Shown here one piece after another: positions 5,965 through 46,605 of a stretch of DNA of 64,000 nucleotides. The position numbers were made by a program, and so were the translations under genes. The notes below the pieces were generated by a model. It did not search any database and was not told the origin of the DNA. It saw nothing but the letters and a program-made list of their open reading frames with translations. Every line of letters starts with the position of its first letter. Position 1 is the stretch's first letter. The stretch is taken from contig JAUCBJ010005855.1 in assembly GCA_032718475.1 (NCBI GenBank), positions 4,827-68,826 on the forward strand. Direction: 5' to 3'. Source of the stretch: Nemertoderma westbladi (taxonomy: Eukaryota; Animalia; Xenacoelomorpha).

Positions 5965-6480
5965 AAAGCCTACTGTTCAGTTACAAGCCTACTGATCAGT
6001 TGCAAGCCTACTGTTCAGTTACAAGCCTACTGTTCAGTTGCAAGCCTATTGTTCAGTTACAAGCCTACTGTTCAGTTGCAAGCCTACTGTTCAGTTACAA
6101 GCCTACTGTTCAGTTGCAAGCCTACTGTTCAGTTACAAGCCTACTGTTCAGTTACAAGCCTACTGTTCAGTTACAAGCATCCTGTTCAGTTACAAGCATC
6201 CTGTTCAGTTACAAGCCTACTGTTCAATTACAAGCCTACTGTTCAGTTACAAGCCTACTGTTCAGTTACAAGCCTACTGTTCAATTACAAGCCTACTGTT
6301 CAGTTACAAGCCTACTGTTCAGTTGCAAGCCTACTGTTCAGTTACAAGCCTACTGTTCAATTACAAGCCTACTGTTCAGTTACAAGCCTACTGTTCAGTT
6401 GCAAGCCTACTGTTCAGTTACAAGCCTACTGTTCAGTTACAAGCCTACTGTTCAGTTACAAGCCCACTGTAATTCAGTTA
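5965..6480. repeat. 19-bp minisatellite, ~27 copies
   Basis: unit caagcctactgttcagtt(a/g); explains the three overlapping repetitive ORFs at 5934-6608. Confidence 0.95.
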
Positions 6481-6629
6481 TAACTTATACATTATGGCCT
6501 ACTCTGCACACACAGTATAACTATCAGTTCAATGTAATTCTTTGCCTTACACCTAACAGTTTCCTATTCACCACAATTAGCAACAATAATCGCAAAAAGC
6601 ACTTTTGAGTTTATTTTCTTTCTTTTTAT

Positions 6630-10736: not shown

Positions 10737-11164
10737 TCTGTAGTTATGTTACTAGAATTCCAGGGGTAGTTTTACCGTAATCTACTAAATAGCCATATGT
10801 TAGAATTTTCAAAATGTAGGCCGGTGTTCGGACACTTCCCCCCCGGCCATTTGGTAAGGTCAACGGACCGCTTGTATCCAGATAAGTTGTATCCAATTTT
10901 CCTTTCGTAGCTCAGAAAGTGATCTTTTGCATCCCGATTTTACATTTTATAACCAAGTTTTATCAATGCAATTACATCGTATTGTTTGCTAATCTTTAAA
11001 CAATTAATTATATTAGATGACCTATATGATGAATTATTTCACTATAAGGTAGCATTTGTAGTTTAACTTTAACGTAAAAACTTTCGAAAATCCGACGCAT
11101 TTTGATTAAGTTACAGTAATGTAATATGCCTATTCATATTTGTACACATAAAACCCTTAGGTAC

Positions 11165-11240
11165 TCTCGTGGCGTAGTGGTCAGATGGTTAAGGCGTTGG
11201 TTACATTACATAGGTTACGAGTTCGAATCCCGGTCGGGAA
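11165..11240 (+). promoter_or_regulatory. tRNA-like Pol III internal promoter (A box + B box) inside the LTR
   Basis: TGGCGTAGTGG at 11170-11180, TGGTTAAGGCG, GAGTTCGAATCC at 11219-11230; present in all four LTR copies. Confidence 0.65.
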
Positions 11241-11316
11241 ATTTGTATTTTGGGGCCATTTATTTTCGTTTGGTGCTAATTGGTAGGCCAATGAGAAGCG
11301 TACAACGTAGCGAATG

Positions 11317-11545
11317 ATGAGCCAGGCCAATCATAGGGCATAAATTATCTTATTGCTCAAATGTGAGGCAGTGGAAAATTCTGTTAGGATTCCATGTCCC
11401 AGATTAGTGTAAGGGCCGGATTGCGTTGAACGATGAGCTGGGCCAATCATAGGGCACGAAGCACTTTATTGCTCAAATGTGAAGCTGTGGAAAATTCTGT
11501 TTAGTTTCCATGTGCGATATTTAGTATAAAAGGCCGGTTTGCCTT
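11317..11545 (+). promoter_or_regulatory. LTR U3 ~115-bp duplicated CCAAT module followed by TATA box
   Basis: gatgagc..ggccaatcatagggca... twice; TATAAAA at 11525-11531; only one module in the element 3 LTRs. Confidence 0.6.
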
Positions 11546-14344: not shown

Positions 14345-17300
14345 ATGAGTGACACACCCCATTCGACGAGATACCCACCTACCGACTATGACTCGTGCGA
14401 CCCGGACAGATCGACAGTAGACGAACCAAGAAGGAGAACCCGAGATTCCACCGATGTCACACCGCTTGCGTCACCGGTACCCCGAACGGAAATACCGGAA
14501 ACCGCAACGCGTGGCGACGGCAGAATCGAAGATTTCCTTACCGTCCCGCAGACTAGATCACGGGAACCGGACATGGTAAGTTCGACTGGAAGCCAGGAGA
14601 ACGTTATTAGAAGTATAGGAGGACACATGGCCCAGATTACTCGGATCCTCGGAGAAGGTTTTCGCGTTTTACGCGAGTTAACCGCCCCGATGTCGAGATA
14701 TGAGTTCTACACCTTACAGGTAAGGATAGAAAGTAGGGTACATGCCTCCGTAGATAAACTTAAAGGTTTACATGAACTTGCAGAGTTGCGCGGCGACAAC
14801 TTTACTCAGGTAAAGATAGTAGATAAATTAGTAAGTGCGAGAGAAAGCATTATCCAGTTTAAGTCAGTAATAAGATTGGCTCAACAGGAGCAGTTTGACC
14901 AACTGCTAGGTGAGTCAGTTTCGGACGCGTTGTTACAACCCGAAGAGGAAAAAGAACTCTACTGCCTGGACAGAAGGTTGGAAACGCTTACCAATTTTCT
15001 TCGTAGATGTGGCGTACCGATCGACGAACCGGAAGTCGAACCGCGAGGGACGACGGAAGTTCTCACTACGGAAGGCTCGCGAGCCTACCAACATCCACCA
15101 CTGGATAGATCGTTCGTTAGCGTACGGAGCGACGTTGGCAACGTTGGCGACGTTAGTAAAACAGCGTCTGTAATTACTCGACAACAACAGGAGGTTGCAC
15201 GCCGACAACAAGTCGCCGAGGAAGAAGCGCAACACCAGATGGCACAGATCGCCATCGAAGGAGAGAAACAACATAGAGAGGACGAGGCAAGAATTGCGCA
15301 ACTCAAGGCGCAAGCCGAATTCGAAGCTTCGGAAATGCGCAGACTGGAGGAGGACTTAGCGCGAGAAGCGGCGGCAGCAGCCGACGAGTTAGCACGAAAG
15401 AAAGCAGCATCCGACGCTCGTGCCAAGTTGGAGGCGCGACAAATAAACGCTCGATTAGCTATACAGGAAGCGGAGTTAGCGGCACAACAACAAGTAGCGG
15501 ATCGACGCGAAAGGGAGATGCAACTACAGTTCGAATTGAATCGTAGATCGCGCGAGACAGCGAACGCGCAAGCGGACCTCGAACTCGACGCGAGAGATAG
15601 ATCTATAAGATCGCGAACTGGACACGACTTGTCTGCCCTGGATTGTATGGAAGCTCGATATCGCGGAATACAGAAGCAGATCGAGGAAGGAAGTGTGGGA
15701 GCGATAGATCGAGGAGAGGAGTTCGTCGAGGATTACTGTAAACGTTTTCCCCAAGTTATTCCTATGCTCAAACCCACGACTCCGATAAAACCGGTCTTCG
15801 TTACGAAACCTAAGGAAATAACGCCTGTGCGTTCGACGCAAGGCAACAGGTTTGTTGTGACGGAAATACCGCAACCTAGGGCGACTTCATCACCAATTTT
15901 AGCAGGTAACATAACTAGTCCACCTACAGTAAGTCGTAGTCTACTTGTAGGAAGAGAGGAACCTGCGTTTATGACCATTAAACAGGTGAGTAAACCATTA
16001 CAAGTTAAACCTGTGACGTGCTGTGCAAATCCAGTTATTTACAGACCGACTACGAAACCCGACTATTTCACTCGACCGTTGACACAATGTTCGACGCAAC
16101 CTACGACTTCGTGGAAGGCTTGCGAGCCTACCGAACTACGGAGGAGGATGGATGTGGGTAGTACCCACAGGATCGGACAACGTATAGCGAGACCTACGAC
16201 TTCGTGGAAGGCTTGCGAGCCTACCGAACAACGGAGAGCCGTAGATTCCAGACCACAACGGACGAAACCGAGAATAATACGCCGGACACGAACCCGCCAG
16301 CCACCTTATCCGGACGACAGCGACTCATCTAGTGACTCGGAGTCGACGGAACGGGAAATATTCCGTACTGGAGCGGCGGAAGATTACAAACGAGAGGAGA
16401 GGTCGACGAATCCATACATCGACAATCCACCTCGAGAAACACCCCAACAGAAACCCACGTTGAAACCAGCGGAAACGATCAGCGCTAAACAGTTCACCGA
16501 GATGACGGACAGAATAGCTCAACTCGAAGAACGACTCGAAGCGCAACCGTCGGATCGATCTCGAACCAGCGTGGAGTTGGAACAACCTAGACAACATCGA
16601 CCACCGAGGAGAGAACAGGAGACTAGACGGACTCCGACACATCGAGAAGATGATCCCGTTAATAATTCCTACCGACGAACAACGCGCGGAAGGGAGCGAC
16701 TGGACGACGCCGCCGAACAGGGACGCGGACAGTTGGATTTGGTTAGCGAGATTGCGAAATTCGCGGCTAGACACAGATTACCGGCACAGCAACCGCCGAA
16801 GTTCTCTGGCAACGCGAAACACTGGCGCACACTGGTAGACTACGTAGAGTCCCAGATCGCTAAGTGTGCTTTCACCTCGACGGAGAAGTTTAATTACTTG
16901 CTCCAAGTTCTGTCTGGTGAGCCGAAACGATTAGCGGAACCCTTTATTGGAGTTCCCGATGCCTTCGAGTTAGCATACGATTGTTTATATTCGATTTACG
17001 GAGGTAATGTCGCCATGGCTAAATCCATTATTGAAGACCTCTGCAGAGGAGGCAACATTTCGAGACCGATCGACCTTTTACGACTCGCGGACGAAATAAA
17101 GAACGCTATAGGGACTTTACGGTCCATTGGACAACTCGAGTACGCTAACGCACCGACGGTTCTCATTCGAATAATCGGTCGACTTCACCATCGACTACGA
17201 CGAGACTGGCGACGCATCGAGTACCAGCGCGAAGAGGCCGGAGGGTTATTAAAACTCACCGATGTCTATCAACTGATTTCACGGGAGGCCGTGATCGAGA

Positions 17301-17461
17301 CTCGATCGAACTATACCGATCACCATATCGCGGCGGAAGGGATAGCTATTTCTGCGCCGAATCGGACAAAACCGTTTCCGACGAACGCGAAAGCCGTTAC
17401 TTACGCCACCCCTACTGAGACTTCTAAAGTTCTGACGCCTATCGGCACCACGCAGCCATGA
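14345..17461 (+). pseudogene. gag: Gag region of element 1 polyprotein (premature TGA and nearby 2-bp deletion)
   Basis: Coiled-coil region; PPKFSGNAKHW...EKFNYLLQVLSGEP (BEL/Pao gag); sibling reads QPQQQLPADFEGCPYC through this point. Confidence 0.88.
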
Positions 17462-17480
17462 CAACAGTTGCCGGCACTTT

Positions 17481-20348
17481 GTGGGATGCTCATACTGCGA
17501 GCGGAACGGCAGAAACCATAGCGGACATAAACTACGTGGATGTCACGCTTTTAAAGAGTTAGGGATCGAGGAGAGGAGACTCCAAATCCGATCTCTAGAT
17601 TCCTGTTGGAGATGTATGAAGCCAGGACACGTCCGGAAGGATTGCACAAGCGACGATACATGTTCTCTGTGTGGACGTAACCATGACGCGTTGCTTCACA
17701 CAACCAGTCATACTCTGACCAGACGCTTTCGACGAGAGCATCCAGATAAAGCGGCTAGATGCGACGCTCTTTATAAGGAGCGTGCGCCGCGCGAGATCCG
17801 TACCTTTTATACCGACTGTATGGATCAGTCAGGATCATCGGACGAGGACGAGGAGGAAGACAACACTTTCTACGTGCATGCAGGTGAGGAACAGCCATCG
17901 ATAACGCTCCTCACACAGAACCAATTGAAAGGGTTTAGCGTGATTCCCATAAAGATTACCGGAACCCGAGGGAGCAAGCGTATATACGCCATCTTAGACT
18001 CTGCGTCATCGCATAGCTATGTCGACGAACAAGTAGCCGACGTAGTTACGGACATGAGTCAAGGTAAGACTGCTCAGCATACAGTAAGTAGCATGCATGG
18101 TAAGAGAGCGATCCCTGTGACAAGAGTAAAACTAACTTTAGACACTCTTCTTTCCAAAGCGGAACACAGCAAGGAGGAGCGCTCATTACTTCCGGTAAGA
18201 AATTTGACCTTTGCAGCTACGAAGGACTTTAGTAACTTGCTCGGCCCTGTGCCAGAGCAATCACCGGAAGATCGTAAGTGTTTCCGACACCTTGGAATAC
18301 CGGAATGTCCTGTTAATTATCATTCCATTGCGATGTTAATTGGGACAGACCAGTTTAACTTACATCAGGTATGGGAGACACGCCCATCTGTTATTACAGC
18401 GGGCAACCCCTACGCATGTAGAACTCCCATAGGTTGGTATACTAGAGCACCAATACGTTCACTAGAGGTAAGTGACCAGGAGGACGACGTTTTGAGTACG
18501 TGTAGTTTATTGACTAACACGATAGATAATTCTCCTTCACACTCCTGTGGTCCAATTGTACGGACGGCACTACGACAGACTTGCGTCACTAACGCAGACG
18601 CCACCGATACTGACGTAACCGATCTGGACACGACCATACGGACCTCTGACTTACAACTACTTGCAGTAGACCAGGTTGTATTGACTACTGAAGACCAAAG
18701 GGTTGTTGCCGTGGATGACTCGATGAACGAGGATTTTGGAAGGCTTGCGAGCCTACCGAAAAATCCGAAGGTCATTGACCCCACCCACCAGGCTTCGACA
18801 CCGGTCGTTGATCTTGGAAGGCTTGCGAGCCTACCGACAGATCAAAAGGTTGTCAAACCGCCGCACGACGATTCGACGCCGACTAGTGACACCGGAAGGC
18901 TTGCGAGCCTACCAGACACCTTGACACTAGCCACCGCAGCGGACGAAGACGTGGACGAGGACCATGGCGCAGTGCAAGCAGCGCTTGACCGACTGCTGAC
19001 TGAACGGACCATACAATGGTTGGAACAGGACTCAGCAGAACCCGGTAGTTACGAGACCGCTATGTCAGAACAGGAAAAACGGTCATTAAATATTATGAGA
19101 GATACCATTCGCCAGACCGCGAATGGCCACTATGAGGTTGGTATGTTGTGGCGCAATGGACAACCTAAGCTCGTTAACAATTACCCGCTTGCTTTGAGGC
19201 GACTCAAATCAATAAGGCAGCGATTGTTGCGAGACGAGATGGCCCATATGCAATACAATGCACAACTTCAGACGTATCTCCAAAAGGGATACGCCATTAC
19301 GATGTTAAATCCCGAGGTAACCACAGACCAGACATATTACCTGCCACATCATTTTGTTCGACACCCGGACAAACCTGGCAAGGTGCGTGTAGTCAACGAC
19401 TGCGCCGCGCTTTACCAAGGGATGTCTATGAATAGCGAACTGATGGACGGGCCGAATATGAATAATTACCTCATGGGAGTCCTAATGCGTTTTAGACAAC
19501 GCAAAGTGGCTTTCACCTGTGACGTAGAGGCCATGTTTCACCAGGTTAAGGCTTTGGAGCGGGACAGGGACAGTTTGAGGTTTCTTTGGTATCCGGACGG
19601 AAACTTACAACTTCCGCCAGAAACTTACCAAATGCAGGTAAGAGTATTCGGAGCCAGGGACAGCCCCAACTGCACCATGTACGCATTAAAGCAGACAGCA
19701 TTGGACAGACGAGACCAATTTGACCCAGAAGTAGTTCGGACCGTGGAACGAGACTTCTACGTGGATGACGGCCTCAAGAGTTGTGACACCTTGGAGCGCG
19801 CTACAACCGTAGCACACCAACTCCAGGATTGTCTCGATGAGGGCGGATTTCACCTGACGAAGTTCGCTTCCAACGAACCCGAGCTGGTGAACTCATTTGA
19901 CCCGATGGATCGCAGTGGAGGTGACTTGGACTTAGACCTAGAACCTCTGCCGACGACCAAAGTATTAGGACTTAGTTGGGACCCTAACACCGACAATTTT
20001 AGGGTACGTGTAAGGTCCAACGACCAGACTAGACCTCTCACTAAGAGGACTTGCTTATCGACCATGAGTCGATTGTATGACCCATTGTGTTTCATTAGTC
20101 CAGTGATCCTACATGCTAGGATCATACTCCGCAGCATTTGGCAAGCCGGACTGGAATGGGACGATCCCATCCCAGAAAAGTTAGCTGAGCGATGGAGGGA
20201 CTGGGAAGCCCAACTGACGTTCCTACAAGATTATACCATACCGAGGGTATACTTTCCTTTGCAAACCACCTTTCCTGCCGATTTAGAGCTTCACAGCTTT
20301 AGTGACGCTAGCAAGGATGGATTGGGGGTTACTTTATACCTTAGATGA
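17481..20348 (+). pseudogene. pol: Zn knuckles, aspartic protease, RT and start of RNase H of element 1
   Basis: CWRCMKPGHVRKDC, ILDSASSHSYV, YYLPHH, DGPN, DVEAMFHQV, RFLW, VFGARDSP, FYVDD, HSFSDAS. Confidence 0.93.
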
Positions 20349-23189
20349 CAAGTGACATTGGACAGCTACGATGTATCTCTCGTTACTTCAAGGGCTAGAA
20401 CGATGCCATTGAAGTATATGACTGTACCTCGTGGGGAGCTGCAAGCCGGGACGATATCCACCGATATTGTCAGTCTAGTTCAACGCGAGCTGGAGGCTAA
20501 CTTGAAGGTCACATATTGGACGGATGCGACGTTGGTACTTTGGTACATAAACAACGAAACATTTGAGTTCAAGACTTTCGTAGCCAACAGACGGGCTGAA
20601 ATATTAGACCGGTCGCTCAAACAAGATTGGCGTCACTGTCCAGGGAAGCTGAACCCAGCTGACATCGCGTCAAGGGGGATGCAACCGCTTGACTTTTGTA
20701 AACCGGACAATAAATCCTTTTGGTTTAGAGGACCCGATTTCCTACAGCGACCATCAGACGAATGGCCACCGTTATTCGACGCGACAACCAACACCATACC
20801 AGAGGGTGCCGAGATAAAACTCGACAAGGTTGTCAAGTCTAAAGCGAAAGCCAACGCCAAGGTCAAGAGGAAAAAAGGACGGACGAAATCTGATGACCTG
20901 GACGCCAGACCTTACATTACGCCAGACGTCTCGCCAGACACTCGACCAGACGCTTGTACGAATCCTTCGCCGGATGTTCCGCGGGAGATTTCACCAGACG
21001 TTTCGCCGGATTGTTCACCAGATTACTCGCCAGACTATTCACCAGAAGAGACACCAGATTGTTCTCCGGATTGTTCGCCAGATTGTTTGATGGAACTCTC
21101 GACAGAATGTCTACCGGACGTCTCACCAGACTTTCCACCAGACATCTCGACAGACTGTCCACCAGACTTTAGACCAGACTTTGAACCAGACTTTCTGACA
21201 GAAGTTACGCTAGACAGACTTTGGGACCGACGACAGGACATTTTGCCGGATGTTCCGTGCTATGTCTCACCAGACGTCTCACCAGACTGTTCACCAGACG
21301 CTTCACCAGACTGTCTACTAGACACTCCATTAGAAGACCCATTGGAGCGGACTTTTAGAGACTTACCAAATTTGACTTCTTTGGACGACAAAGGTGTGGC
21401 CACAGGGATTACACTCCGCTCGAAGAAGGTACTTGACTTACCTACAGGTAAACGTGTGACTAAGGTTAGGAAGCTTACAGGCTCACAGGAACACACTGAC
21501 ACTGTAGAGTTGAAACCATTACTGCCAGTCGACACATTAGGTGCGGACGGTAAAGGAAAGACCGTAGAGATTGACGTACTTGGGGACTCAGACAAACCTA
21601 CCGGAAGGCCCGTGGGCCTACCAAGTCCAGACAAGTATCCACACTACGACTACACCTTACCCGATGACGTCACCAACACTTACGTTGACAGGATAGTGAA
21701 CCTAACTAGATCATGGACTGACGTGTGCCGCAAGTTAGCATGGCTCAAACGATTGAGACAATATGCCAGAGGCAAACGCGACTTTCCTAGAAGACTTACC
21801 TTAAAGGAAATTGGCCACTGTGAAGTTGATATCATTCGACATTATCAATTGCGATATTTCGCACGAGAGTTCACAGCGATCAAACAAGGTAAACAGATTA
21901 AGTCTTCACCGATTTTGAGTTGGAGTCCGATTATTTACCGGGGCTTACTTTGTCACAAGTCCAGACTCCAAAACATCGACTTTGCACTTGACTTTAGGTA
22001 TCCTATCATCATACCGCAACACCATGAGTTACAGCGCGCTATGATACTGGACGCACATGTACAACTCAAACACGTAGGTAGACACCACTGTCTATCACAC
22101 TTACGCTCGAGGTTTGTACTGATTAGACCTAGTAAGGCACTGAGTTCGGTAACACGGAACTGTATTATTTGTAAGAAGGTGCACGCGAGGATAGGACACC
22201 AAGAAATGAGTGAACTACCACTAGAAAGATTACAGGCGTTTAGACCCCCTTTCACTGAGACAGGGATAGACTGTTTTGGACCCATAATCGCGAAACGCGG
22301 AAGGGTACAGGTAAAACGTTGGGGATTGATCTTCACTTGCATGGCCAGCAGAGCTGTCCATATAGAACGAGTGACAGACTTGACCACCAATGCCTTTATC
22401 CTAGCCTTACGGCGATTTATCGCTAGACGTGGATTGGTCAAATCCATATACTGCGACCAAGGGACAAACTTTGTGGGTGCACGGAACGAAATAACCAGAG
22501 CTTTGAGAAAATTGGACCAAAACCAGATTTCCGAGGAACTACGTCCTCACCGTATTGTTTGGTTTTTCAATACTCCAGACAGTCCGTGGAGAGGCGGCGT
22601 TTGGGAAAGGCTGATTGGCTCAATAAAGACAGCTATGGCTAAAGTCGTACCGACGCAACACATCTTGACAGACGACCAACTGACGACGTTACTAATAGAA
22701 ATCGAAGCAATCTTAAATACTAGACCGATCGCTTTGATCCCAGACAATAACGACGTACAGTTTGCCTTGACACCAGCGCACCTGCTTATGCAGCCGCCGA
22801 CGACATTGTTGCCCATTTCGGTACCCGTTGATAGTGACGGATACGGCAACAAGGCTTGGAAAATCACTCAATTGCTTGCAAATAAATTCTGGGAAATATG
22901 GCAGAAATATTATTTGCCCTCTATTTCGACCAGAACCTCTTGGTATCTAAATACCCGATGTTTAAGACGTGGTGACCATGTTTTATTGGCTGAAGCTAAT
23001 CTGAAAAGACGGTTTTGGTTGACTGGAGTCATTTTGACCACGCACCCTACATCTGGTGTAGTGAGGACAGTTACTGTAAAGACTATCGACGGACGTACCG
23101 TAGATAGGCCTGTACAACGTCTCGTACTCCTTGAGGAGACTAGAAACGAGACGGGAGACTACAAATCTCCACCCAATATTAGTAAATAG
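20349..23189 (+). pseudogene. pol: RNase H and integrase of element 1 (same frame, after in-frame TGA)
   Basis: VPRGELQA, YWTDA, NPADIASRG, H..H..CIIC, GIDCFGP, CDQGTNF, GGVWER. Confidence 0.93.
20905..21360 (+). repeat. 12-bp in-frame coding minisatellite (xSPD/xxPD) between RNase H and integrase
   Basis: ccagac/ccggat about every 12 nt; ISPDVSPDCSPDYSPDYSPE. Confidence 0.85.
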
Positions 23190-23926
23190 ATGTGGGACCT
23201 TAGTTGGCCGCCACATAGACCTACGGTATTTTAGTTATTTGTATTTGTATTACTGTACGTGCATTTGTAATCCTCTTCACTGTAGATAGAGACAGCGGTG
23301 GAATTCCATTGTCTTTATACGTGAACATGGAGGGTAGTACCCTTATGTATCACATAGGAGCGGGATTGTGTGTACAGTAGGAATGGAATTCCACTTGGAA
23401 CCCACAAGTGAGACAATTTTCAAAAATTATTAGACAAATCCATTTGTTTGGATTTAAATTTAAGAAAAGCGATTCTCCAGTGAAAGCAAATTCTAGAATA
23501 CAGCTAGATAAAAATTAAAATTGGGGAGGACAAGAGCGGATGGAAGGCTTGCGAGCCTACCGATAAAATTTTTTTTGGAAAAAGAAAATCGGCCTTGTTC
23601 TACGTAGTCGTGTCTACCATTATTTAGACCAATTAATTCTCAACTGCACTATTTTTCTTGGGAAACGTAGTTTGGGAAATTAAAAGGTGAGTATTTTAGA
23701 CTCGCGGCTAGTTTACCCGGAATTCGTTTTTTATCGGCACATTTTTTGGATTAGGAGCCAGTGCGAAATCACGCGAACCCGAAATCATTAGGCAAAATGG
23801 GTTGGGGTTTAGAGCAGAGTTGAGCCAAAAGCCGACAAACTATAAGTCACCTCACATCTAACCTCTATTTTGTGCTTCATCTAGTAGAAACGTAACGATA
23901 TGTAACCACATATATATTCGTATACG

Positions 23927-26900
23927 ATGGCGGAGAAGATGTATAAAGAGTTACGTCAAGGGTTTACGCAAGAACAAGAGCACCAGCCGCCATTCAATCG
24001 TTATGGAGCTAAAAACTTTAGTGTGTTTGGAGTGGAGAGTATGGCTAGGAGTACGGCCAAGCTCGCTAAATCCAAGGCGGACCCGAATGTTCTGCGACAG
24101 CGGTTGGACGCATACAACAAAAGAACAGAGGAATTACGCGCGGAATTCAATGCGTTATATCCTTACGATGCGTTATGCGACGCTAGCGACATTTGCGAGG
24201 ATCCAGACACCGAAATACGCCGATTGTATCATACGCTGCAATATTTGACGGTAAACGAACCCTTACCTGCAGCTAGAGACGAATTTGAAGGAATGCATCT
24301 TTATAGACGCGCTCGAGGAGCGGATCCAGAGACCAAGGACGCGTTCTCCATATACAAACTGTTTTATAAATGTGGAGCGTGTATGCGCGAGCAAGACAAC
24401 GCGATTCCTATGCGGTTGAACTCGGAGAACCCCGAGCCGATATTAGCGCGATGTTCACACCACCAAAGTCTACGTTACCAAGAAGGCGGATACCCTTTGA
24501 CAAATCCGTATCATTCGTTTAAAATGAGTGGACCGAACGCGGGTGAGATCGTTATTTACGAACCCAAATTAGTCGAACCAGACGTCTACAGCATGGTAGT
24601 GGACAAGTCTAATAAGTCGACACAAGAGAAACGGGAAGCTTTGAGCCTCTACAGGGCGTACAAGGCGTACAAGAAAGGCGAGATCGAGGAGTTCGGCGGA
24701 AGGCTCGCGAGCCTACCATTCTATTGGATATCCCACGATCAAACCGAACCCAAGGAGATGACACCCGAGCTCTTCGATAGTATCACCTTTGCTCAGCGTT
24801 TGTCGCAGAGACTACAGATACCTCATGTCGAGATGACGCGAGAACCTCAGCCCCATTCTACTGGAGCAATAGTACCGGTTGCGAGACCAACTAGTTTTCC
24901 TATTAGTATACCGACCCGGAAGGAGACAATTTACGAGATCCCTATAGTTGAACACCCGGAGATCATCTCGAACCTGGATTTCCTCCCATCGGTTACCTTC
25001 GGTGATGTGTTAGAATCAACCGAGTTGCGTAAAAATAATAGTTCAAAAAATTGTACGCAACGTGCCTCCACATATCACGGACTTTAAGGAAGTGGATCGC
25101 GCGGGGACGGATATCGCACCTTGTATCTTGCGAGGATATCTGACGAAAACGATTTGATTATGGATCGGAGTTGGAACGTTTGAGACCGACACCGATATCG
25201 CGACCAATTGGACCGGTAAACCTATTAGTTTCGATGATGAAAAGTCGATCGGGAGAATTTGGAACCCTACCGACGATTTACTCGACGATTGGGACGTGAC
25301 TAGCCGATCTCTGAAAGAGAATGGTTATATGTTTTACGATAATGAAGGAGGAAGCCATCAGCAAAGCCTCACTTCAAAGACTATACAGATTAGAGCACCA
25401 GATGGCGTGTTACATGTCTTCAGCCGACAGAGGAGTGATAGGAAGATGCCTATGCCGGAAGGAACGACGCAAAGACACGCGATGATAAAACGGATAGTTA
25501 AATCCATGGACCTGGCTTGTAGCATAGAAGCTAGGATGTTGCCAAAGGCCGTGCGAGACGTTGTGTTGGATAAGAGCATCGTCAAGATCGGATCTGGTGT
25601 ACGGGATGACCTCATTAGTGACTTTGCAGGGATGCCCACGGAAGAGGACCGATTGCCTACGCCATACGTGGATACTAGACCATTGTTGCTTTGGGCTATT
25701 GAGCAAGGATATTTTAGGGAGTATAACACGCTAAAAACTGGGACGGGTTATATCTCATATCTAATGTTCAGTTAGGATTACAAGGAGAGTAAGAGGAACA
25801 AATACACGGACGTATACGGAGAGGGAGATACCCCCGGCGTAAACGAGTTCGAGTCACAGTTGAAGTGGCGAGGTTGCGTGTATTGGGCGATTACTTCACC
25901 CCCGCGGATAATCTTGCAATACTATTTAGCGATAGAATCTTCGGTTAACGTTTGTTTCATCGCGGACGTAGTATCCAGAACCCTAAAGCGACACCCGTTA
26001 TGTCTTGGCGAAGGACATACCTTTTACGATGGAGGAAGGACGCATACTGATGTATTCCGACGATTTCTCCAACCCTTTTATAACACCGATGCGCACTGCG
26101 AAGTTTTCACGCGAGCAGGACTTAGCGTTTTCAGGGACGTCTATCTCACTCACGCGGGAAGTCTAGTTGACAGACCGTCGATGTTAACGTTAGTACCCTA
26201 TGACGGGGAATGCCACGTGGAATTCGAACGCCCGGAAGGATCCTGGAAGGCTCGCGAGCCTACCGCCCATCATGACGATGTGGATCCGACCGAGTTGACG
26301 CTAATAGATGAACCGTTACGGCAACTCATAGAAGTAGAGGAGAACCTTCCGAGGAAGACGCGAACTGAGATACGCGAGTTGGAGAAAAGCGATGCCATGG
26401 TTTGTGTACAACCTACGGAGACGAACATACCGACTGACCCAGATGATGAGAATTATCACGTGGACGGTAGCGCTCGCCCCATCGGAGATCTCATCTATGA
26501 GCGAGTTTGGTATCCTGCCAACACTATTTGTGGCAGATGTGGAGCAACTGGCCATCACGCAAAGAAGTGCGGAGCGAAGCACATATCTCTACCGGATTTA
26601 GTATGCAACTGGTGCGGGGATCAACGTTCGCACACTTTCTACACTTGCTGGCGTTTCGTGGCGCAGTGTACTTATTGTAATATTAAGGGCCATAGGGCAT
26701 CCGAATGTCAACTTAGAGACGTCCCCTATGAGCACATGACAGTTAAAATCGTTCGACAATTATTCGACCATTGGGAGGATCTAGCAGACGAGCATGTATC
26801 GACGCAGCGACGCCGCTTCCCTATGAGAGCACATTTGGGATTTTGGGCCGTAAACCCGCTCATAATGTCAAAGGAAGGATATGTATCGGCTATGCCTCAG

Positions 26901-27683
26901 TACGATGAATTGTTGGAGGTATTGGATATATTGCCATTGGATAGTGGATTCAAAGTTGTGCGGGACTATTTCTTACAAGTGCACCCTGACAACAAGAATA
27001 CTTGGAACTTTCAAACTGTGGTGAACAAGATTACCGCCGGAGAATTCGATAAACTGCGAGTTGAACAGCGGAATCGAGGAGCCTGGCATTCGATAGCTTG
27101 GGCATACCGGAGCGCATTTTATCACAAACGCGTAACCTCGTGTATTCTAGACGAGACCGACGTTTTGCGTGAGACTGGCTTCAAGGCCACGCCATTAGCA
27201 GAGAAGACGCGTCACCCACAGGATGATCAGCAATTTCGTATACTCAAAGCCCAGAAGGCCAGACAAGAGATTAAAAAGATAGTAAATGTCGCCGAGAGGA
27301 CGACATCGAAGTCGCAAATCTGGATGACTCGGGGCACGGTTTCCCTTGCTAGAGAACCACGCGGAGGGACAGGATACGCTTTGAATGAACCCATTAGGAT
27401 TCAAACGACGTCAGAGAGCGAGGTGTCAACGGACGGAATGGTCCTACCTTTTTGACTTCCTCCTAGCGTTGTAGAAACTCGATCCGATGTTAAGCCGACA
27501 GTTGGAATCGGACGAGGATTTAGAGGATTGAGCGCACGACGGATGTGCGAAACTCCCGTCGTCCCCTTTCCTAGCGTTTTGGAACCACCGACGACTCGAC
27601 GCCGAAGTCCGAGCCCAGTTCGACCTCGACCACCCCCCAATCGCACTAGAGGACGTGGACGAGCCCGCTCAGCGAAGGAATAG
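23927..27683 (+). pseudogene. Accessory ORF2 of element 1 (~1250 aa reconstructed): Cys/His domain, DEDDy-like 3'-5' exonuclease, three CCHC knuckles
   Basis: Pieces join via a +1 frameshift at ~25033 and stops at 25155, 25773 and 27453; MFYDNEG, LPKAVRDVVLDKSIVKIGSGVRDDL, YVDT; CGRCGATGHHAKKC, CNWCGDQRSHTFYTC, CTYCNIKGHRASEC. Confidence 0.8.
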
Positions 27684-28310
27684 GAAGCGAGTGGAAGGAA
27701 GGCTTGCGAGCCTACCGATTTGGATATTATATTTGGATATTTATTTTGGATATTTATTTGGATATTATATTTGGATATTTATATTGGACATTATGTTTGA
27801 ATGTTGGGTTTGGAGGAGCGAGATATGGAAAGGAAGGCTTGCGAGCCTACCGTTAGCAATTGGTGCTCAGGAGAAGATATCCAGACCAGCAGGACGAACT
27901 ATTTAGATCGTCAGGAGGACATTATTGGAAGTTATTAGCGTATTGTGTTTATTTTATATTTGAACTGATTTAATTTGGTGGAAGTTTATTATGTATATTT
28001 ACAATATATAAAGATTTATCGAAAGAGTTACAATTATTTGTTCGATTTGTTTTGATTTATTTGTTCTGATTTGTTTAATTTGCTTACCTTGATAACCGAA
28101 AGCCTTTTTTGTATTTTAGGCACTAAAGTTGATTAGTAAATTTGTATTTGTATGTACGATCGATTGTATTTACGCCGTATCTGCAATATTAAGTATGCAA
28201 TAATTAGATAGTGATTATATTTTATATTTTAGGCCCTACCAGTAGATTTAGAAGTAGTTTGTAAATATTTTATATTTCGATTGGTGAAAACAGTCTTACT
28301 TACTGTTTTC

Positions 28311-28319: not shown

Positions 28320-29409
28320 TGATGAATTATTTCACTATAAGGTAGCATTTGTAGTTTAACTTTAACGTAAAAACTTTCGAAAATCCGACGCATTTTGATT
28401 AAGTTACAGTAATGTAATATGCCTATTCATATTTGTACACATAAAACCCTTAGGTACTCTCGTGGCGTAGTGGTCAGATGGTTAAGGCGTTGGTTACATT
28501 ACATAGGTTACGAGTTCGAATCCCGGTTGGGAAATTTGTATTTTGGGGCCATTTATTTTCGTTTGGTGCTAATTGGTAGGCCAATGAGAAGCGTACAACG
28601 TAGCGAATGATGAGCCAGGCCAATCATAGGGCATAAATTATCTTATTGCTCAAATGTGAGGCAGTGGAAAATTCTGTTAGGATTCCATGTCCCAGATTAG
28701 TGTAAGGGCCGGATTGCGTTGAACGATGAGCTGGGCCAATCATAGGGCACGAAGCACTTTATTGCTCAAATGTGAAGCTGTGGAAAATTCTGTTTAGTTT
28801 CCATGTGCGATATTTAGTATAAAAGGCCGGTTTGCCTTCGGTTATCACTCTTACTTACTTCTTAGAACCTAAATCCTTACTCTTGTAAAAATTAGTTTAT
28901 TCGGTTTCTTGTTGAAACTTCGTTTGATAATTCCTTTGTAAAACTGTAAATATACTGCAAATTCCTGAACATGTTTTCTTTTGGTCCAACTTTGGGACAG
29001 CCAAACATCAGGAAGATGGCAGCCTAGACCGTTAGGCCGTAAGCAACGCAGGGAAAAGATGTCCACAACACGCTAGCGCCCACATTGGATTGACCGCGCA
29101 CCCCCTTTGCCCCTTCGAAATACTCCACTTGCCATGCAGCGCCCGCTTTGTGAGAAAGGTAAGACTTTGTTCGACGCCCTTGCCCGCCGTAAGACCTATA
29201 GATCAGGGTAAGCGTGACGCCGTCCTGGACGCCGCAAATTTAGGATCAAATAATTATATTCAGACAGAAACACCCCCCCCCCCCCCCCCCCCCCCCCCCC
29301 TTTGTCATGTCCTACGAACCCCTGGGTTAACCTGTACTTCCTACAGGTGCGAACTATTGCCATTCATCAGTACGCGAGTACATATTAGGTACGGACAGCA
29401 TATGTTCCA
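28320..29409 (+). repeat. 3' LTR of element 1
   Basis: Direct repeat of 11027-12109; homology ends at ttcCA. Confidence 0.9.
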
Positions 29410-29568
29410 AACAGTTGCGGTGCAAACAGTGGTGCAGACACTGGTGCAGACAGTGGTGCAGACAGTGGTGCAGATAGTGATGCAGACAGTGGTGCAGACA
29501 GGGGTGCAGACAGTGGTGCAGGCAGTTTGTGTAGACAGTGGTGCAGACAGTGGTGCAAACACTGGTGC
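29410..29568. repeat. 12-bp minisatellite (acagtggtgcag)n
   Basis: ~12 imperfect copies abutting the 3' LTR. Confidence 0.9.
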
Positions 29569-30790: not shown

Positions 30791-33700
30791 TTATTTATGA
30801 CTTTTCTTCTTTTTAGAAGAGCGTTTGCGTCGCTTTGTCGACGGTGAATGATTATTGGTTGACGAAGGTGGGGAACCTCGTACTTGCAGCCCTTCAGCGG
30901 CGGAAGGATGAATCTCCAATGAATCCGGATGGGGCGCAACAGCACATAATGCGGGTCCTCCGGTAGAAGTTCCAGGTTGAGGTTCAGTTGTCGTAGTGGT
31001 CACTGAAACGGATTGTCGCAACAACTTTACGCCTTTTCTAAGTACCTTGGCCAGTGAGGACCTGGAGGAAGGCACCAGGGTGGATTGTACTGCCTTTTGA
31101 AGAATTGCCGCAGTAACTGGTCTTTTGAGAGTTTGCGATGACGTCGCAATGCCTCCTCTGTCGGAAATAAACCTGGGCGGCTTGACAGTCTCTTCAGCAA
31201 GACGCGCCGTATGACGAAGGTAAGCAACTCGATCCGAAGTTTGTAGCAACTCGGGATTAGCGGCGACGAAGTCGTACCCGTAGTTCGAGTCTTTCCGCAT
31301 GAATTCAACAAGGTTGTAGGTCGTAACGTCACCGGGGTTCATACGACGGAGAAAGGGCCGCACATACTGAGTGTTAGTAAGCTCCGAAACGGTTAATAAT
31401 AACTGGTGGAAGGTGGGATCTTTGCACTTCAATAGCGAAATAATAGGGATTGAATGCAAAGACTCCGCAATACGAGCGAGCAGACTCGTAGCGTAGGCGC
31501 GTGACTTGATTTAAGTCAGTGTAATGTTCCCACAATTTAATATACTTTAAGAGGGATGTATCGTCGTCCCGTTGTGTCAAGTCAAAGGTGCAAGAGCCCG
31601 GGTAATGCCCTTTAAGACGACATTTATCGCATTGTTCAGCGAATTGCGGGCAGTTGAAGAAGGTATGATCGTCGAACAATCTGCAATATGGACAATGGAG
31701 GGGAAGGTCCGAACATTGTAGATAGCTTTGACAAATCTCGCCGGTAGCTGGTGCTTTATGCGCACGGGAACCACATTGAACGCAGCGCTTCCTACCTTGA
31801 GACACACCCGAACGAAGCGAATCTCGTCAAAGGTTGTGGTCCAAGGTGCCACGGCATAATAAATTCACCGTCATCATCCGACTCAGAAGTGGGATGGATG
31901 GATTTAGATTCCAGGACATTATCTGTTGCGGAATCCTTTAGATAAGAAGCCAGCTGTTTGTCCGAAGTTTGGACAATCGAGACATAATACCCAGACTTAA
32001 GGATGGGGCGTTCTAGAATAGTCGAATGTAGGTTTTTAACACATACATCCTTAAATATAGCGAAACCCTTTAGATTTAAATCCTCGAAAGCAGAGAGACG
32101 TATATTTACCTGTCCCTTCAGAAGGTGATCACAGAACTGGCTATCAATACCAAAGAAAGGGAATAAAAATCTTTGAAAACATTCGAAACATTGGAACTTC
32201 CCTTCACGGTTGACTTTGGCAAGCTGGGTGCAGAGAATTAAGGGGTGTGACCTCAAAGTTCTACTACAAGTATTGGCCAACCAACCTGACACAACAGAGT
32301 TCTCGTAAATCATATAAATAGCCAAAGAAGGCCAAAGGGGAACACTAATATTTGAATAAACTGCACCCGGAGCGGTCAAGGGACCATTAAAATAATAATG
32401 GGAATAATTATCACCGTACAGATTTAAATAGCGGTTATACCGACCTTCCTTGAAATCCCAACCGAGTTCATGGAATGAGATATGTCCGATGCCGGTACGT
32501 TCAGCTCTGCGCATTCTGCTTCCCACGCGTTCGTAAATAACGCGGAAAAAGCCACGTTCCTGAGCCCACGGGAGGATCATTTGCGTGTCCGCAAAGGGGT
32601 AAGGAATATCTAACAATGAGTCGAAATCCTTGTATAGGTCGGGATATATTGCTGAACCGAGTTTGCAAATCGTCTCGTTGAACAACAGGTCAAGGACAGG
32701 TTGTGGTAGCATTGAGGGTTTGATAGCGAGCGCAGGGTGCCGCTTGGTTGCAACGACGTAACAGTAGGACTTCTCGAACTGTCCATGTCGAGGTAACATT
32801 TCCTGGAAGGACGGAGGGGTAAAAGATGCGTTAGAGCTATGGGAGGTTTGCGTGAATACATGAGTGGCTCCGGTGAGACAACGGAAATGTATTAGCGTGT
32901 GGTGCCGAGTTCATCATTCAAAACGGAACCTTTGTTGTCGTATAGCATCACACCATACTGCTGGATAATCTCGAGCATGTTATTAAATTCGAGATACGCA
33001 ATGGTTTTGTCCACTTCAACTGGTGTCCATAAGCTGTCGAGGGATCCGATGGAGCCTCGGGCGATAACTACCGATTTGTGACTTTGGACGTTTTCTACGA
33101 CGGATTTTTCTTTCATCACCGTAGAGAGTTTGTCTTCCCGAAATCGCACGTCGACGTTCCAGTGAATTAATCGATCAATAATGAAATTAGCAAGATTATG
33201 GGGAGGTGCGGGTTTGTCTTCTATAGTTTGTGGGGCGAGCCACGAAGTTGGCGGAGCCTTAGCGAATTGACACTATTAGGGGGTGGGTCAATTTATGCAA
33301 ATAGTTGTCGTCGTCGTCGTTGTCGTCGTCGTCGTCATCGTCGTCGTCGTCGTTACGATTTTGACATGCTAATAACTTTGTCGGATTTAAAGCTGCCAAG
33401 TTGAAAATTTGTAGGTATCAATATGAGCAAAAGTTGAGATTTTTGAGAGACTTTCAGACACCATCAGTGCAATGGTCTCCCGCTAGAGGGCCACATGTCT
33501 AAACATTAAATGCCCTCCCATTTCTTTGCTTTTAATCCGTTTAAGCTGAAACTTGGCAGATATGTATTAGACCATTAGCTGTGACTTTCAAAGGAGGCGA
33601 ATCCATCTGCAGTTCTCCAGTCTGCCGCTAGAGGGCCAAAGGTCTGAAAGTGAAAACAACTAACGACGACAACTATTTGCATAAATTGACCCACCCCCTA

Positions 33701-35649
33701 ACAGTGTCAATTCGCTAAGGCTTCGCCAACTTCGTGCTGCGCGAAGGCCCCACTTCGTGTATATTAAAGGGTTTACGGAAGGCGTTCAGTTTAACCATGT
33801 GATCGAGATGTTTCTGCAGGGGTTCGATTTCTGTAACATCGAGCAGATTAACTAGAGGTAGAAAATCCATACTGCAGGCGGGATCCTCAGGTTTCATCAC
33901 GTACTGTTGAACGAGGAGAATGAAGTCCGGATGGTCCTGAATCCCATAGAACGGGGGATGGAGAGGACGTCTTTCCAGATTCTTATCTCGGATCAGTGAC
34001 TTGATTTGGTCAGTTCGGCCAAGGGGAGCGATAATCCACTCGTCGTCAGTTTTGTCGAGAAAGGGCTCAACAATGTGGGTTTCCAGCATTGGAGCATCGG
34101 CGACCAGGTTAGGGTTGGAGATGTCGGTGTCGAAAGGTATCGTTCGGGTTTGACTGTAAGCGACACCGAAACGCTTTACAGACCCAGACGGATGAGCTTG
34201 CGCATTACCTTGGAACCCTTCCATAAGAGTTTGGACCGCGGGTTGGACCAAGGAAACTAGCTCGCGCTCGTCGTTTAAACGTTCACGCTCCGTCTGTTCC
34301 TCTTCTTCACGAAGACGTTGGCTTTCTTTTAAGGCATCTGCAAGGAAAATAGCCTTTCCTCTTTCGATTTCCTCTTGGATGAGGCGGACTTTGGACTCAA
34401 ACTCTGGGAGTCGCATCCGTCGGATGACATCAAGTTTACCGGATAACTTGATTGGGTCATCAACACCGATAGAGTTTCGTAGGGAGTCCAGAAACTCAGT
34501 AACTAGATAGTTACGATTGACGTTGGAGGTCCCGGCGAAGGTGAGGGGGGAGGTCCACATGGATTGCTCACGCTGTAGCAGACTGCCACGGCCGATACTG
34601 ATCATAGAGGGTTGGAGTGGGGTCGGCTCTTCCTCTTGGTAGCGGGGAGCTATCTGTTCCTCCATGACAAGGTCTCGGAAATACATGTACATGGTTTCGG
34701 AGAAGCGAGGATCGGTCGGGGATAGTGTCATGGGTTTTACCATGGGTAACATCGGGCCGGGAGAAAACTCCGGAACGCGGATCATAGGTTTACGTACTCT
34801 CTGTAGACCACGTAACCGTTTCTCATCAACATTAAATCGATTTTCCTCAAACCCACCGTACGAGTACTTGACGTAACTATGGCGGGGACATCGCCAATGG
34901 GGATGGTTCGCAGGCATAGTGGAGACTTGTTGGTTGGGATGCGGGCATTGACCACACAAGTACCAGAGCCAAAAGCCAGTTTTACTCGGAGATGGGGACT
35001 TCACACCAGATTTGCAGTATTCTTCCATGTCGTAGAAGGAGTCGGGGAGGACAGGGAGCGGGCAGCCCTCAGTAAGGTACATCATGGTGTGATAGAGTCG
35101 TTTGATCTCCTTAACTGGATCAGGATGAACGCCTCTGGGGTAGAGAGTTTGTAAATCCTGTTGGCTAGCGACCTTTAGGTATGTCTCACGAAGGAATATA
35201 ACATAGTCCTCAAACCGGAAGAGATGAAAAGAGTTCTCTGTATCGTCATCCGCAACATCAACACGAATCTGGTAGTCGCGTTGAGTTTGAATCTCGTTTC
35301 TACATTGCCGCTCAACTTGAAGTTTGAACATCTTCATGTCCCATTCAACGTGTTGGTCATCAATGTCCCGTAAGTCCATAGGGTGACCAGTAGTGAGGAA
35401 GCTGTTATAACTCCCATCGCGTTTGGTGTATTTGAGAATAAACTCACGATATTGTTGTTCGATGTCGCGCTGTTCGGGGTTCATCAGCGGTTCGATGTAG
35501 CTTCCCGAAGGATCCATACGCGGTTCCATACTTTGGGCGAGCTGAGTGGATTCGCCGGTATAGTCAGCTATCATCGTATCCATCATCTCCGAATGTTGTC
35601 CCCGAGAACGTCGCTTTACGGAGGGGGGTGTCTTTGAAGATCGAGACAT
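30791..35649 (-). pseudogene. Accessory ORF2 of element 2, homolog of element 1 ORF2, split by a MITE and frameshifts
   Basis: DPVKEIKRLYHTMMYLTEGCPLP, CGQC...RCPRH, MLYDNKG, LPQPVLDLLFNETICKLGSAIYPDL, FADT, CVQCGSRAH, CPYC...HTFFNC, CDKCRLKGHYPGSC. Confidence 0.82.
33230..33753. mobile_element. Non-autonomous DNA transposon (MITE), ~524 bp, ~85-bp TIRs, internal (GTC)n
   Basis: cacgaagttggcg(g/a)agccttagcgaattgacact...caaatagttgtcgtc is inverted at 33664-33736; outer GTGGGGC/GCCCCAC; removal with a 2-bp TT duplication restores the ORF2 frame. Confidence 0.88.
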
Positions 35650-36677: not shown

Positions 36678-39600
36678 TATAATAAACAAAGGCGTCTGAT
36701 GGGTCAGTTGAAATAGTGTACCTTTGGTTTAGGTGTAGCTCTCCAAATAGCTAGTTCAACTGAGCGTACCAAACCATCATTCCCTTGATGATTTTCTGTT
36801 ATCAGGCCTGTTTCCCAGTTTTTTCTAGGTTGGTCTTGATCCACTAAGAAAACAATATCGCTGACTGACACATTTTCCTTCTTAGAAAATCATTTGGTTC
36901 TGAGCTGGACCGATGGTAAGTAGTGTCTTTCAAAATGTGTAGCAAATCGACGAGATAATAATTGCATCATTTGCCAGGTGCGTCTCAGCAGCTCATCACC
37001 GTCCTGTGGTGTGGATTTCGGTAACATCGTTAATGGTTTTCTCAGCATAAAATGGGATGGTGTTAGTGGCTCCATGGCTTGTGGATTAGATGAAACAGGT
37101 AAGAGGGGCCTATCATTTAAATAAATCGCTATTTCCTCTAAGAGAGTTCGGAGTAGCTCATTGGTTAGATAGGCTTTACATGGAATGATATGGTGGAACG
37201 CGATCTTCGTGCTCTTAATTAGTCGTTCCCAACTTCCACCCCACCAAGGCGCATCGGCTGCATTAAACGTCCATGTTGATGCCGATACCCTTAGGTGTTC
37301 TTCTAGGGCTAGCTGGTGATCGTTCCAATCGGCTATGAATTTAGTGATTTCCTTGTTGGTGCCCATAAAATTCGTTTCCTGGTCGGATCTCATAGTGCGG
37401 CTGGTACCAGTCGACCGATTTGTCTTCTCAGGCAAAGGATAAAACTTTTCATTGACATATCGTTAACCATATCCAAGTAAATGGCTCGAAAAGTCATGCA
37501 AACAAAGATGACACGCCATCTTTTCACCATTGTACGGGCGCGCTTGACTTCGATGGTTCTGAAGAGATCTACGCCGGTGTGGGTGAACGGGGGTTGGTAA
37601 CATTTGACTCTTTCCCTAGGGAGCGCCGCTTCTAGTTGAGTCATCAGCTTGCTATAAATCCTTTTGCAAGGTATACAGTTTCGTAATATTTGGTTGAGAG
37701 CTGCGCGGGTGTGTACCAGGTAGTATCGCGTTCTGATCTCGCTTAATATGTTCCCTCCCGGCGTGATAGAGACGGTAGTGAACATCCTGTATCAACTTGA
37801 TTTGAATTTCCGGGTCGAATATTAGTATGGGAAACATAGTATCTCTAGAGATCGGAGCGTTAGTAAGGCGACCTCCAACTCGAATAAAACCATTGATCAT
37901 TATACTGGAGAATTTGTCTGCTAATGGAGTTAGGGGGTCAACACTGAGCTGGTTATATTTCTCAGGCTTCTCCAGTCTTTGTGAAACTCTTAATAAGTGA
38001 AAATTTGATTTATCTACTTCATTAGCAGTTAAGCCTATCATAGGTATGGTCTTAGCTCTGTATCTATAGTGGAAGAGTTGTTTCAGTATGGTTACAGCCC
38101 TACGCATTTTATTCCACGAGCTATAATGGTTCATGGCTCGACATATTAGCAGGGATAAGCCCATGTCCACATTTGGTAACAGTAGTTGGTCAGTGGATTT
38201 TTCAGGGTCATTAACGGCAGTTTTGGGCTGGAAATCAATATTCGGGGGAAGGTTTGGAATTTGACTACCAGTTTTGTTTACATAGTTGTTGGTTGCTATG
38301 TCAACAGGCTTAAAAAGCTTTGACTTAGAGGGCCTGGTTTTTGGCTTAACTATTTCTAGACCCTTGACTTGCCTCATTTCCTCCGGGGTAATATGAGGAG
38401 TCCATTGGTCTTTCGGTTTGGAAAGGAAATCGGGCTCATTCAACCAACATGTTGAATTTAAAAGGTCAGTAGGTGTCGCACCACGGGAGGGTATGTCAGC
38501 CGGGTTTTGAGGTCCGGGGATGTACCTCCATTGGTCTAACTTGGTGCGGTTGAGTATTATTGATACTCGGTTTGTAATGTATACGCTAAAACCGCAGACG
38601 GTGTCAAATATTCCCACACTATGGCTGCGTCTGTCCATAAAACGGTTCTAGATATTACAAAGACGGTCTCGTCCAGGATATTTTTGGCAACAGTAGTTGC
38701 AAACAGTGCGGCCTTTAGTTCATCTCTCGTCACTGTTAAATCTTTGCTTTTTATCAAAGATTTGGACGCGGCTAGGGACACCCGAGTATCTTGTGGTGTA
38801 GTGACCCTATAATAGGCTATGATACCAATGCCCTTGTCACTAGCGTCCCCGAACATGTGTAATTGGTACATGTGCGATGGCAGAGCATTAGGGAAATAAG
38901 CTCTGGGTACCCGGAAGTTTTCAATGTTGGGTAGGGCATATTCCCACTTGAGCCAGTTATCTAGCAGATCTCCTGCTAGAGGTTCATCCCACGTGAGATT
39001 GTGGTCCCACATAGATTTAACTATCTGCCTAGCTTTCACAATGACAGGAATTATAAAGCCTATAGGGTCAAACAGAGTACTCAATATATTGAGGCAAATA
39101 CGTTTGGTACTTATGCCTGGAGGTCTAGTTTGAACTTTAAAGAACATTTCATCCCGTTGTGTGTCCCATGAAAACAAATAAGTTGGTGCCAGTTCCCAAG
39201 AAGGGCAACCTAACACTCTATGGTTCTTTTCGGGGAATCTCATTGATCTCGATTGCTGCAAAACTATACAATAGAATTCTATTAAATCGCATCAGGGATC
39301 CCATTGAGAGACTGCTACGTGGAAATCAGAATGGGTTCCGTAAAGGTCGTGGGACCATGGAGCCCATTTTGGCACTTAGAAGGATAATTGAAGAGTTATC
39401 AAAAAAGAAAGACAGGCATCTGGCTGTTATCTTTGTTGACTTCTTCAAGGCCTTTGATTCAGTCTCTCGCTCACGTATGTTCAGCATACTTTCATTATAT
39501 GGGATTCCTGATGAAATTATTGCAGCAATCAGATCAGTATACGATGGTTCGACAACATTTGTGTCTACTGTTGATGGTGACACAGAACCATTTGAAGTGT

Positions 39601-46598: not shown

Positions 46599-46605
46599 TC
46601 GTTAA

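Follow-up and report, generated by a model that had tools for sequence, protein, structure and literature searches.

A conserved third open reading frame with an RNase D-like domain and zinc knuckles in BEL/Pao retrotransposons of Nemertoderma westbladi

How animal long terminal repeat (LTR) retrotransposons that carry no envelope (env) gene survive under surveillance by PIWI-interacting RNA (piRNA) and exosome pathways is a largely open question. In retroviruses the slot between integrase and the 3′ LTR is taken by env; what else may such a slot hold? In a 64,000-nt stretch of the genome of the xenacoelomorph Nemertoderma westbladi (assembly GCA_032718475.1, contig JAUCBJ010005855.1, positions 4,827 to 68,826 of the forward strand; herein the window), an LTR retrotransposon of the BEL/Pao group (element 1) carries in this slot a third open reading frame (ORF3; 23927-27683, plus strand, 1,252 codons). 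ORF3 is real, conserved, and under selection.

ORF3 and its conservation in two families

The reading frame opens with an ATG at 23927, 740 bases downstream of pol, and its final stop ends at 27683, where an initial annotation made from the sequence alone had placed an accessory frame. The four main pieces of that annotation also stand (23927-25087, 25158-25775, 25776-27455, and 27456-27683), but the frame is broken at four places rather than three, once by a frame change (near 25031-25035) and otherwise by in-frame stops (25155-25157, 25773-25775, and 27453-27455). In contigs of three DNA runs, sequence differing from the window accounts for most or all of the depth at the frame change (12,186 of 13,166, 112 of 136, and 6,407 of 6,407), at the first stop (33,225 of 33,308, 181 of 181, and 33,352 of 33,411), and at the second stop (34,523 of 34,610, and the whole depth in the other two runs). 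These three breaks are thus peculiar to the element 1 copy and not common to most other copies. The third stop has no variant row among the 40 of 466 listed, and element 3, a sister copy of element 1 that bears deletions, is open at the homologous place. The search for intact copies that the initial annotation had proposed therefore succeeded in part: copies free of three breaks are present, but as no single contig covers the whole of ORF3, no complete unbroken copy was observed.

A homologous ORF3 is found in element 2, a BEL/Pao element on the minus strand whose reverse transcriptase (RT) is 43% identical to that of element 1 (120 of 280 columns); we refer to elements 1 and 3 as family 1 and to element 2 as family 2. 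The family 2 ORF3 (30791-35649, minus strand, read from 35649 to 30791) is placed behind integrase, as in element 1, and contains frame changes, one stop, and an insertion resembling a miniature inverted-repeat transposable element (MITE) at about 33241-33736. Four domains are collinear between the two elements (tblastn): a Cys/His domain (35% identity, E 1e-10), a nuclease-like domain (28%, E 7e-14), the segment past it (29%, E 1e-11), and the knuckle and post-knuckle region (28%, E 4e-9), with weak similarity in the second half of the post-knuckle domain (20 of 1,000 shuffles attain the score). Because a homologous frame occupies the equivalent slot of element 2, ORF3 is not a chance reading frame. 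In an RT tree against 60 database RTs (every second one of the best 120 matches), elements 1 and 2 group together with a branch support of 98/94. A single ancient capture of ORF3 by a BEL/Pao lineage is likely on this evidence, and no firmer than that, since both elements are long-branched and the tree is unrooted.

The protein is organized as a series of distinct parts. Preceding it is a candidate splice acceptor predicted from sequence (23858-23887, plus strand; CTAAC, a pyrimidine run, and AG). Eight contigs from a run presumed to be of RNA do not amount to evidence of expression. The N-terminal helical and CxxC...CxxH domain (24200-24493; 35% identity with family 2 over 99 columns) has its CxxC...CxxH within the first piece (residues 148-179), and family 2 retains this motif; no known family was found for the domain in Pfam, in the ESM Atlas, or by an uninformative structure search with an AlphaFold2 model from two sequences (predicted local distance difference test score, pLDDT, of 40; unusable). 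The RNase D-like (DEDDy-type) domain (25320-25935) is followed by a conserved segment past the nuclease-like core (25936-26186), in which His and Cys residues are common to both families and for which no known family was found. Three CCHC-type zinc knuckles follow (26529-26708), two canonical (CX2CX4HX4C) and the middle one CX2CX5HX4C; Pfam zf-CCHC (PF00098) scores 21.2 bits on ORF3 against a cut-off of 20.8, and the first knuckle of family 2 is irregular. The knuckles and the CxxC...CxxH domain are thus present where the initial annotation had seen them. The post-knuckle domain (26709-27160), conserved in family 2, shows the strongest purifying selection of all parts, and a less constrained linker and an Arg/Pro/Ser-rich basic tail (27161-27680) complete the frame. 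ORF3 is not env, as had also been proposed: its N terminus is hydrophilic, and the maximum 19-residue hydropathy (1.48 in family 1, 1.29 in family 2) leaves it without a membrane segment, judged by hydropathy only.

Strong purifying selection acts on ORF3, a signal on which the initial annotation had made its reading depend. Pairwise ratios of nonsynonymous to synonymous substitution (dN/dS) between element 1 and element 3, its about 90% identical sister, are 0.02 in the post-knuckle domain (122 codons; 26791-27160), 0.06 in the knuckles (96 codons), and 0.16 in each of two others, the end of the first piece (122 codons) and the last piece (74 codons), so that four of five stretches lie between 0.02 and 0.16; the fifth, the late linker, has a ratio of 0.42 (98 codons). 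The same comparison gives 0.14-0.24 for gag and pol. These stretches exclude the nuclease-like domain, which is deleted in element 3, and variant places were used there instead. In family 2, third codon positions account for 20 of the 40 variants listed out of 159 rows (p = 0.02), and across the entire family 1 ORF3 for 16 of 30 among the rows listed.

Ancestry and catalytic residues of the middle domain

The initial annotation had likened the middle of ORF3 to DEDDy exonucleases based on the motifs YDNEG, LPKAVRDVVLDKSIVKIGSGVRDDL, and YVDT, all of which were located in the piece 25158-25772. Blind profile searches point the same way. A two-sequence profile run over 301 bacterial genomes returned 13 matches at E ≤0.05, 7 of them RNase D (NCBIfam), and a tighter profile over 400 bacterial genomes returned RNase D in 12 of 15 matches; RNase D has a share of about 1 in 3,000 genes, and the RNase D matches are not mutually independent. 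In these alignments the ExoII Asp and the next P-x-x-D-T block are in register. Against 13 RNase D domains, picked via Pfam and not via the query, hhalign gives a score of 29.2 (E 0.002), whereas DnaQ scores 14.8 and none of 100 column shuffles exceeds 20.2; RNase D and DnaQ were the family profiles compared with the middle domain. The ExoII and D-T-x blocks rank first or second of 1,100-1,500 windows in both families, the five DEDDy motifs are collinear in both, and a K-x-x-x-R-x-x-aromatic stretch of RNase D is matched by eye. With an unfiltered RNase D hidden Markov model, family 2 beats 500 of 500 shuffles; the family 1 piece does not stand out, its score being attained by 50 of 500. Taken as sequence evidence, these comparisons make it very probable that the middle domain is of RNase D-type ancestry. 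Eight weak PF01612 matches considered as WRN-like seeds were left unused; the four inspected were DnaQ-like.

The likeness to RNase D, RRP6, and the WRN exonuclease (PF01612, TIGR01388) lies in the ExoII strand-helix, the D-T-x block, and the order of motifs. ORF3 differs in carrying about 35 extra residues behind the third strand and a further insertion ahead of ExoIII, in lacking both an HRDC match and, at the likeliest register, the ExoIII Asp, and in scoring below every library threshold.

ExoI reads D-N-E in family 1 (Asp and Glu at 25338 and 25344; rank 14 of 1,185), whereas family 2 has Lys at the second acid and reads D-N-K (rank 104 of 1,488); the ExoII Asp (25608 in element 1) is retained in both families. 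For ExoIII, family 2 shows the pattern that precedes the ExoIII Asp of RNase D (Pro-Leu, six residues, and Tyr; rank 5 of 1,448 windows). The likeliest register, which is moderately supported, places Tyr at 25881 and Thr at 25893 in family 1 and Ser at the expected Asp position in family 2; the +4 residue after Tyr is thus Thr or Ser and not the Asp of Y-x-x-x-D. No variant row among the 40 listed in either read table falls on one of these codons. Because at this register Thr or Ser replaces the ExoIII Asp in both families, an RNA-binding pseudo-nuclease is likelier than an active enzyme, and catalysis has probably been lost. The claim that ORF3 encodes a distinct RNA-binding nuclease thus keeps its RNase D ancestry but is weakened as to nuclease activity, both by the missing ExoIII Asp and by the Lys of family 2.

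Possible roles of the ORF3 protein

Any account of ORF3 can build on what is established, namely its position, its domain order common to two families, purifying selection, RNase D-type ancestry for the half that bears ExoII, and the lack of a membrane segment. The reading that we prefer, with about as much doubt as confidence, is that ORF3 encodes an RNA-binding accessory protein, its catalysis likely lost, that would hold and shield the RNA of the element. The pseudo-nuclease pocket would grip an RNA end or stem, and the knuckles and basic tail would grip single-stranded RNA; the resulting complex may protect genomic RNA against 3′ trimming and small-RNA silencing by the host or, alternatively, escort it to assembly sites. 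The protein would act in trans, in which case deleted copies could persist, such as element 3 and the deleted family 1 copies with a 3,063-base deletion (joint 24489-27553) that are present in two of four runs.

Several observations weigh against this reading. ORF3 has no match to Pfam PF01612, the hhalign probability for RNase D is 13% only, and the DEDD fold that the initial annotation had expected structure prediction to reveal was not recovered: AlphaFold2 with two sequences gave a pLDDT of 35, and the structure search reached at most Z 5.8. The family 1 ExoIII window ranks 247 of 1,153, a weak assignment, and RNase D is found in 0 of 12 matches of a profile of the ExoIII half. Family 1 retains D-x-E and the ExoII Asp, and Gly-rich sequence at about 25815-25829 offers it an alternative Y-x-x-x-D. 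The variant rows listed are a part of the whole (40 of 466 and 40 of 159).

It is nevertheless most improbable that the domain has another fold and resembles RNase D by coincidence. Such a coincidence would fit the lack of any match of the middle domain in Pfam, NCBIfam, PDB sequences, or the structure search, and genome matches that are singly weak (E 0.001-0.05) and, for RNase D, not mutually independent; it would not readily account for one family of about 3,000 per genome taking 12 of 15 and 7 of 13 matches with the ExoII Asp in register, nor for five motifs in the same order in both families. Were the domain an active 3′-5′ exonuclease with a rearranged ExoIII, the knuckles would bind substrate and the enzyme would trim element RNA, a primer, or host small RNAs. 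This is unlikely: the acids kept at ExoI and ExoII in family 1 and at ExoII in family 2, the alternative Y-x-x-x-D, and the rotifer DEDDy ORF3s with intact catalytic residues, as described in the accessible text of PMC5408684, speak for activity, but the alternative motif sits in a Gly/Pro-rich stretch and is lost in family 2 (Y-G-D-N-Y), which also carries Lys as its second ExoI residue and Ser where the RNase D-like ExoIII register calls for Asp. A decoy or suppressor that imitates a DEDD protein of the host piRNA or exosome pathway and obstructs the host machinery, rather than acting on element RNA, would have a model in EXD1 and Maelstrom, host piRNA factors that the same text describes as inactive DEDD derivatives; three DNA runs contain family 1 in great abundance (6,310, 170, and 3,004 contigs), and the additional conserved domains of ORF3 could bind proteins. 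We consider it quite unlikely, as no host paralog was found in protein database searches, a general suppressor would free competing elements too, and three knuckles and a basic tail suggest nucleic acid binding.

The remaining alternative concerns a 20-nt motif of which element 1 holds 11 dispersed copies (15070-27851, plus strand; starts at 15070, 16113, 16206, 18738, 18816, 18894, 23542, 24698, 26245, 27697, and 27832) and element 3 holds 8 (50259-58205), with a chance expectation of 0.01. Copies lie in non-coding DNA and, within coding frames, in three phases; the two within ORF3 differ in phase. The motif folds to a short hairpin with an A-A mismatch and is equally a DNA dyad; because no compensatory change is seen, the two are indistinguishable. 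The hairpin is the minimum-energy structure in all 8 folded copies, with z below -2.5 in 2 of them. The motif is a possible packaging or protein-binding signal, and ORF3 may be its sequence-specific reader, either of an RNA hairpin used in packaging or localization or of a DNA dyad in VANC-like anti-silencing of the integrated copy. The number and placement of the copies, the consistent fold, and the retention of the motif in element 3, where much of ORF3 is lost, favor a reader, as do the binding of Egalitarian to the stem-loop of the I-factor in the accessible portion of 10.1101/2025.08.03.668247 and of VANC to non-coding regions of its own elements in partial accounts. Such a reader is very unlikely, however, given the lack of compensatory change, the modest z scores, and an element 2 ORF3 that stands without the motif (no copy in element 2 within 5 mismatches) or any other dispersed 12-14-mer family. 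The initial proposal of a hairpin reader is weakened by this last finding, and any motif-reading role of ORF3 would be confined to family 1.

A more elaborate form of the preferred RNA-binding reading is decidedly doubtful: an RNase D-type nuclease captured anciently by BEL/Pao and disarmed would now be a self-encoded, Egalitarian- or Exd1-like adaptor for the dispersed hairpins, shielding or routing germ-line RNA. If true, the element would encode a counter-silencing system with a cis code of its own.

Juno and Vesta, LTR retrotransposons of bdelloid rotifers, are gypsy-like. Both, together with the Athena/Terminon elements of bdelloid rotifers, carry a DEDDy-exonuclease ORF3 (Rodriguez, Kenefick, and Arkhipova 2017, PMC5408684; for Juno and Vesta also PMC5718144), which in the text accessible has its DEED catalytic residues intact and no function shown. 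The rotifer half of the initial annotation's precedent is thereby borne out; for nematodes, no paper was found in the literature searched, part of which was accessible in excerpt. As far as these sources describe them, the rotifer ORF3s share with the present one a non-env character, a place downstream of pol, RNase D-like DEDDy ancestry, and the lack of a membrane segment. They differ in the host element, which here is BEL/Pao; in their intact DEED residues, which ORF3 here likely lacks; in architecture, since those parts mention no rotifer ORF3 fused to a Cys/His domain as well as three knuckles and a post-knuckle domain; and in selection, which is clear here, whereas rotifer env and GDSL ORF3s show no departure from neutrality within the genome (PMC5408684, in part), the ORF3s being compared by description. 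Among BEL/Pao elements, Tas and Cer7 have an env ORF in the slot after pol (PMC554778, in part); ORF3 shares slot and superfamily with these but has no signal or membrane segment, and its domains are unrelated as far as that source describes them.

On the host side, Exd1, Exuperantia, Maelstrom, and Egalitarian are DEDD proteins that bind RNA without catalysis, and the stem-loops bound by Egalitarian include the one of the I-factor retrotransposon (10.1101/2025.08.03.668247 and PMC5408684, accessible parts). By analogy with what these sources describe, ORF3 would likewise be an exonuclease fold turned RNA binder with added basic or zinc modules, its binding being predicted; the known proteins are host genes, whereas ORF3 is encoded by the element. 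ORF3 extends DEDDy ORF3 cargo to BEL/Pao, and two distant families of a single genome attest to its long-term selection. It suggests a conversion from enzyme to RNA binder as in host Exd1 and Maelstrom, here on the side of the element, and offers a candidate ligand (the 20-nt motif) and three uncharacterized conserved domains.

Homologs of ORF3 outside the window were sought widely, and none was found. A literature search, with most subscription papers and Repbase outside it, found no report of a DEDD ORF in BEL/Pao or of the ORF3 architecture. None of 4,150 candidates (lengths 463-1,474) from a 5.8-billion-protein search was an ORF3 homolog, nor were any of 135 candidates from a protein search with the knuckle alignment; pattern matches in metagenomes confirmed as ORF3 were 0 of 225 and 0 of 408, and the single viral contig with integrase did not carry it (0 of 1). 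PDB sequences gave no meaningful match to ORF3, and the ESM Atlas gave no usable match for the nuclease-like part of family 2; its best value for the Cys/His domain was 0.85, to unnamed clusters. A single phmmer match among 1.84 billion representatives, to a repeat protein over 40 residues, was judged to be chance, as were plasmid matches at E 5-10.

The host elements and the rest of the window

Element 1 is a BEL/Pao LTR retrotransposon, with LTRs, a DUF1759 gag, Peptidase_A17, an integrase with DUF5641, and the order protease, RT, RNase H, integrase. Its LTRs (5′, 11027-12109, with TG...CA ends; 3′, 28320-29409; plus strand) are 99% identical. No target-site duplication was found beside the matched LTR ends (11022-11026 and 29410-29414), and no clear candidate for a primer-binding site after the 5′ LTR; the true LTR end may sit further inward. 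A leader of 2.2 kb lies upstream of gag (DUF1759; 14342-17461, plus strand), which a frame change splits from the knuckle and protease part. The gag knuckles, protease, RT, RNase H (Peptidase_A17), and integrase (H2C2, DUF5641) follow at 17436-23189 (plus strand), interrupted by one in-frame stop (20346-20348). Among the best 120 of 1,616 database matches, the RT region is 39-45% identical to its relatives, with no close relative; those named are from cnidarians, molluscs, echinoderms, and one nemertean.

A 12-bp tandem array encoding four-residue, SPD-like units (20850-21340) sits within pol, separating RNase H from the integrase zinc finger; here the sequence of element 3 departs from that of element 1. 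Further tandem arrays are found to the left of element 1, with 19-nt and about 68-nt units (5852-6573 and 7753-8531). No Rfam match was obtained across window positions 10500-46500.

Element 2 (30791 to about 45000, minus strand) is an older BEL/Pao copy. Its MITE-like insertion (33241-33736) has inverted ends of 74 nt and in part resembles sequence near 43922-44039, and a non-LTR RT ORF is nested within the element at 39141-40550 on the plus strand.

Element 3 (46400-61788, minus strand) is a derivative of family 1 from which most of pol and the nuclease-like part are deleted. Its ORF3 remnant (50453-52081, minus strand) has about 90% identity with element 1 and has lost the nuclease-like part entirely; its gag and knuckle/protease part, unlike those of element 1, are uninterrupted in a single frame. 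Five 95-nt repeats, absent from element 1, replace the deleted part of pol (52389-53289). Beyond element 3 are a second LTR, a leader, and the start of gag in a tandem-array-like arrangement, and an ORF at 62726-63373 (minus strand) resembles the terminal part of a non-LTR element, with its zinc knuckle and restriction-like endonuclease.

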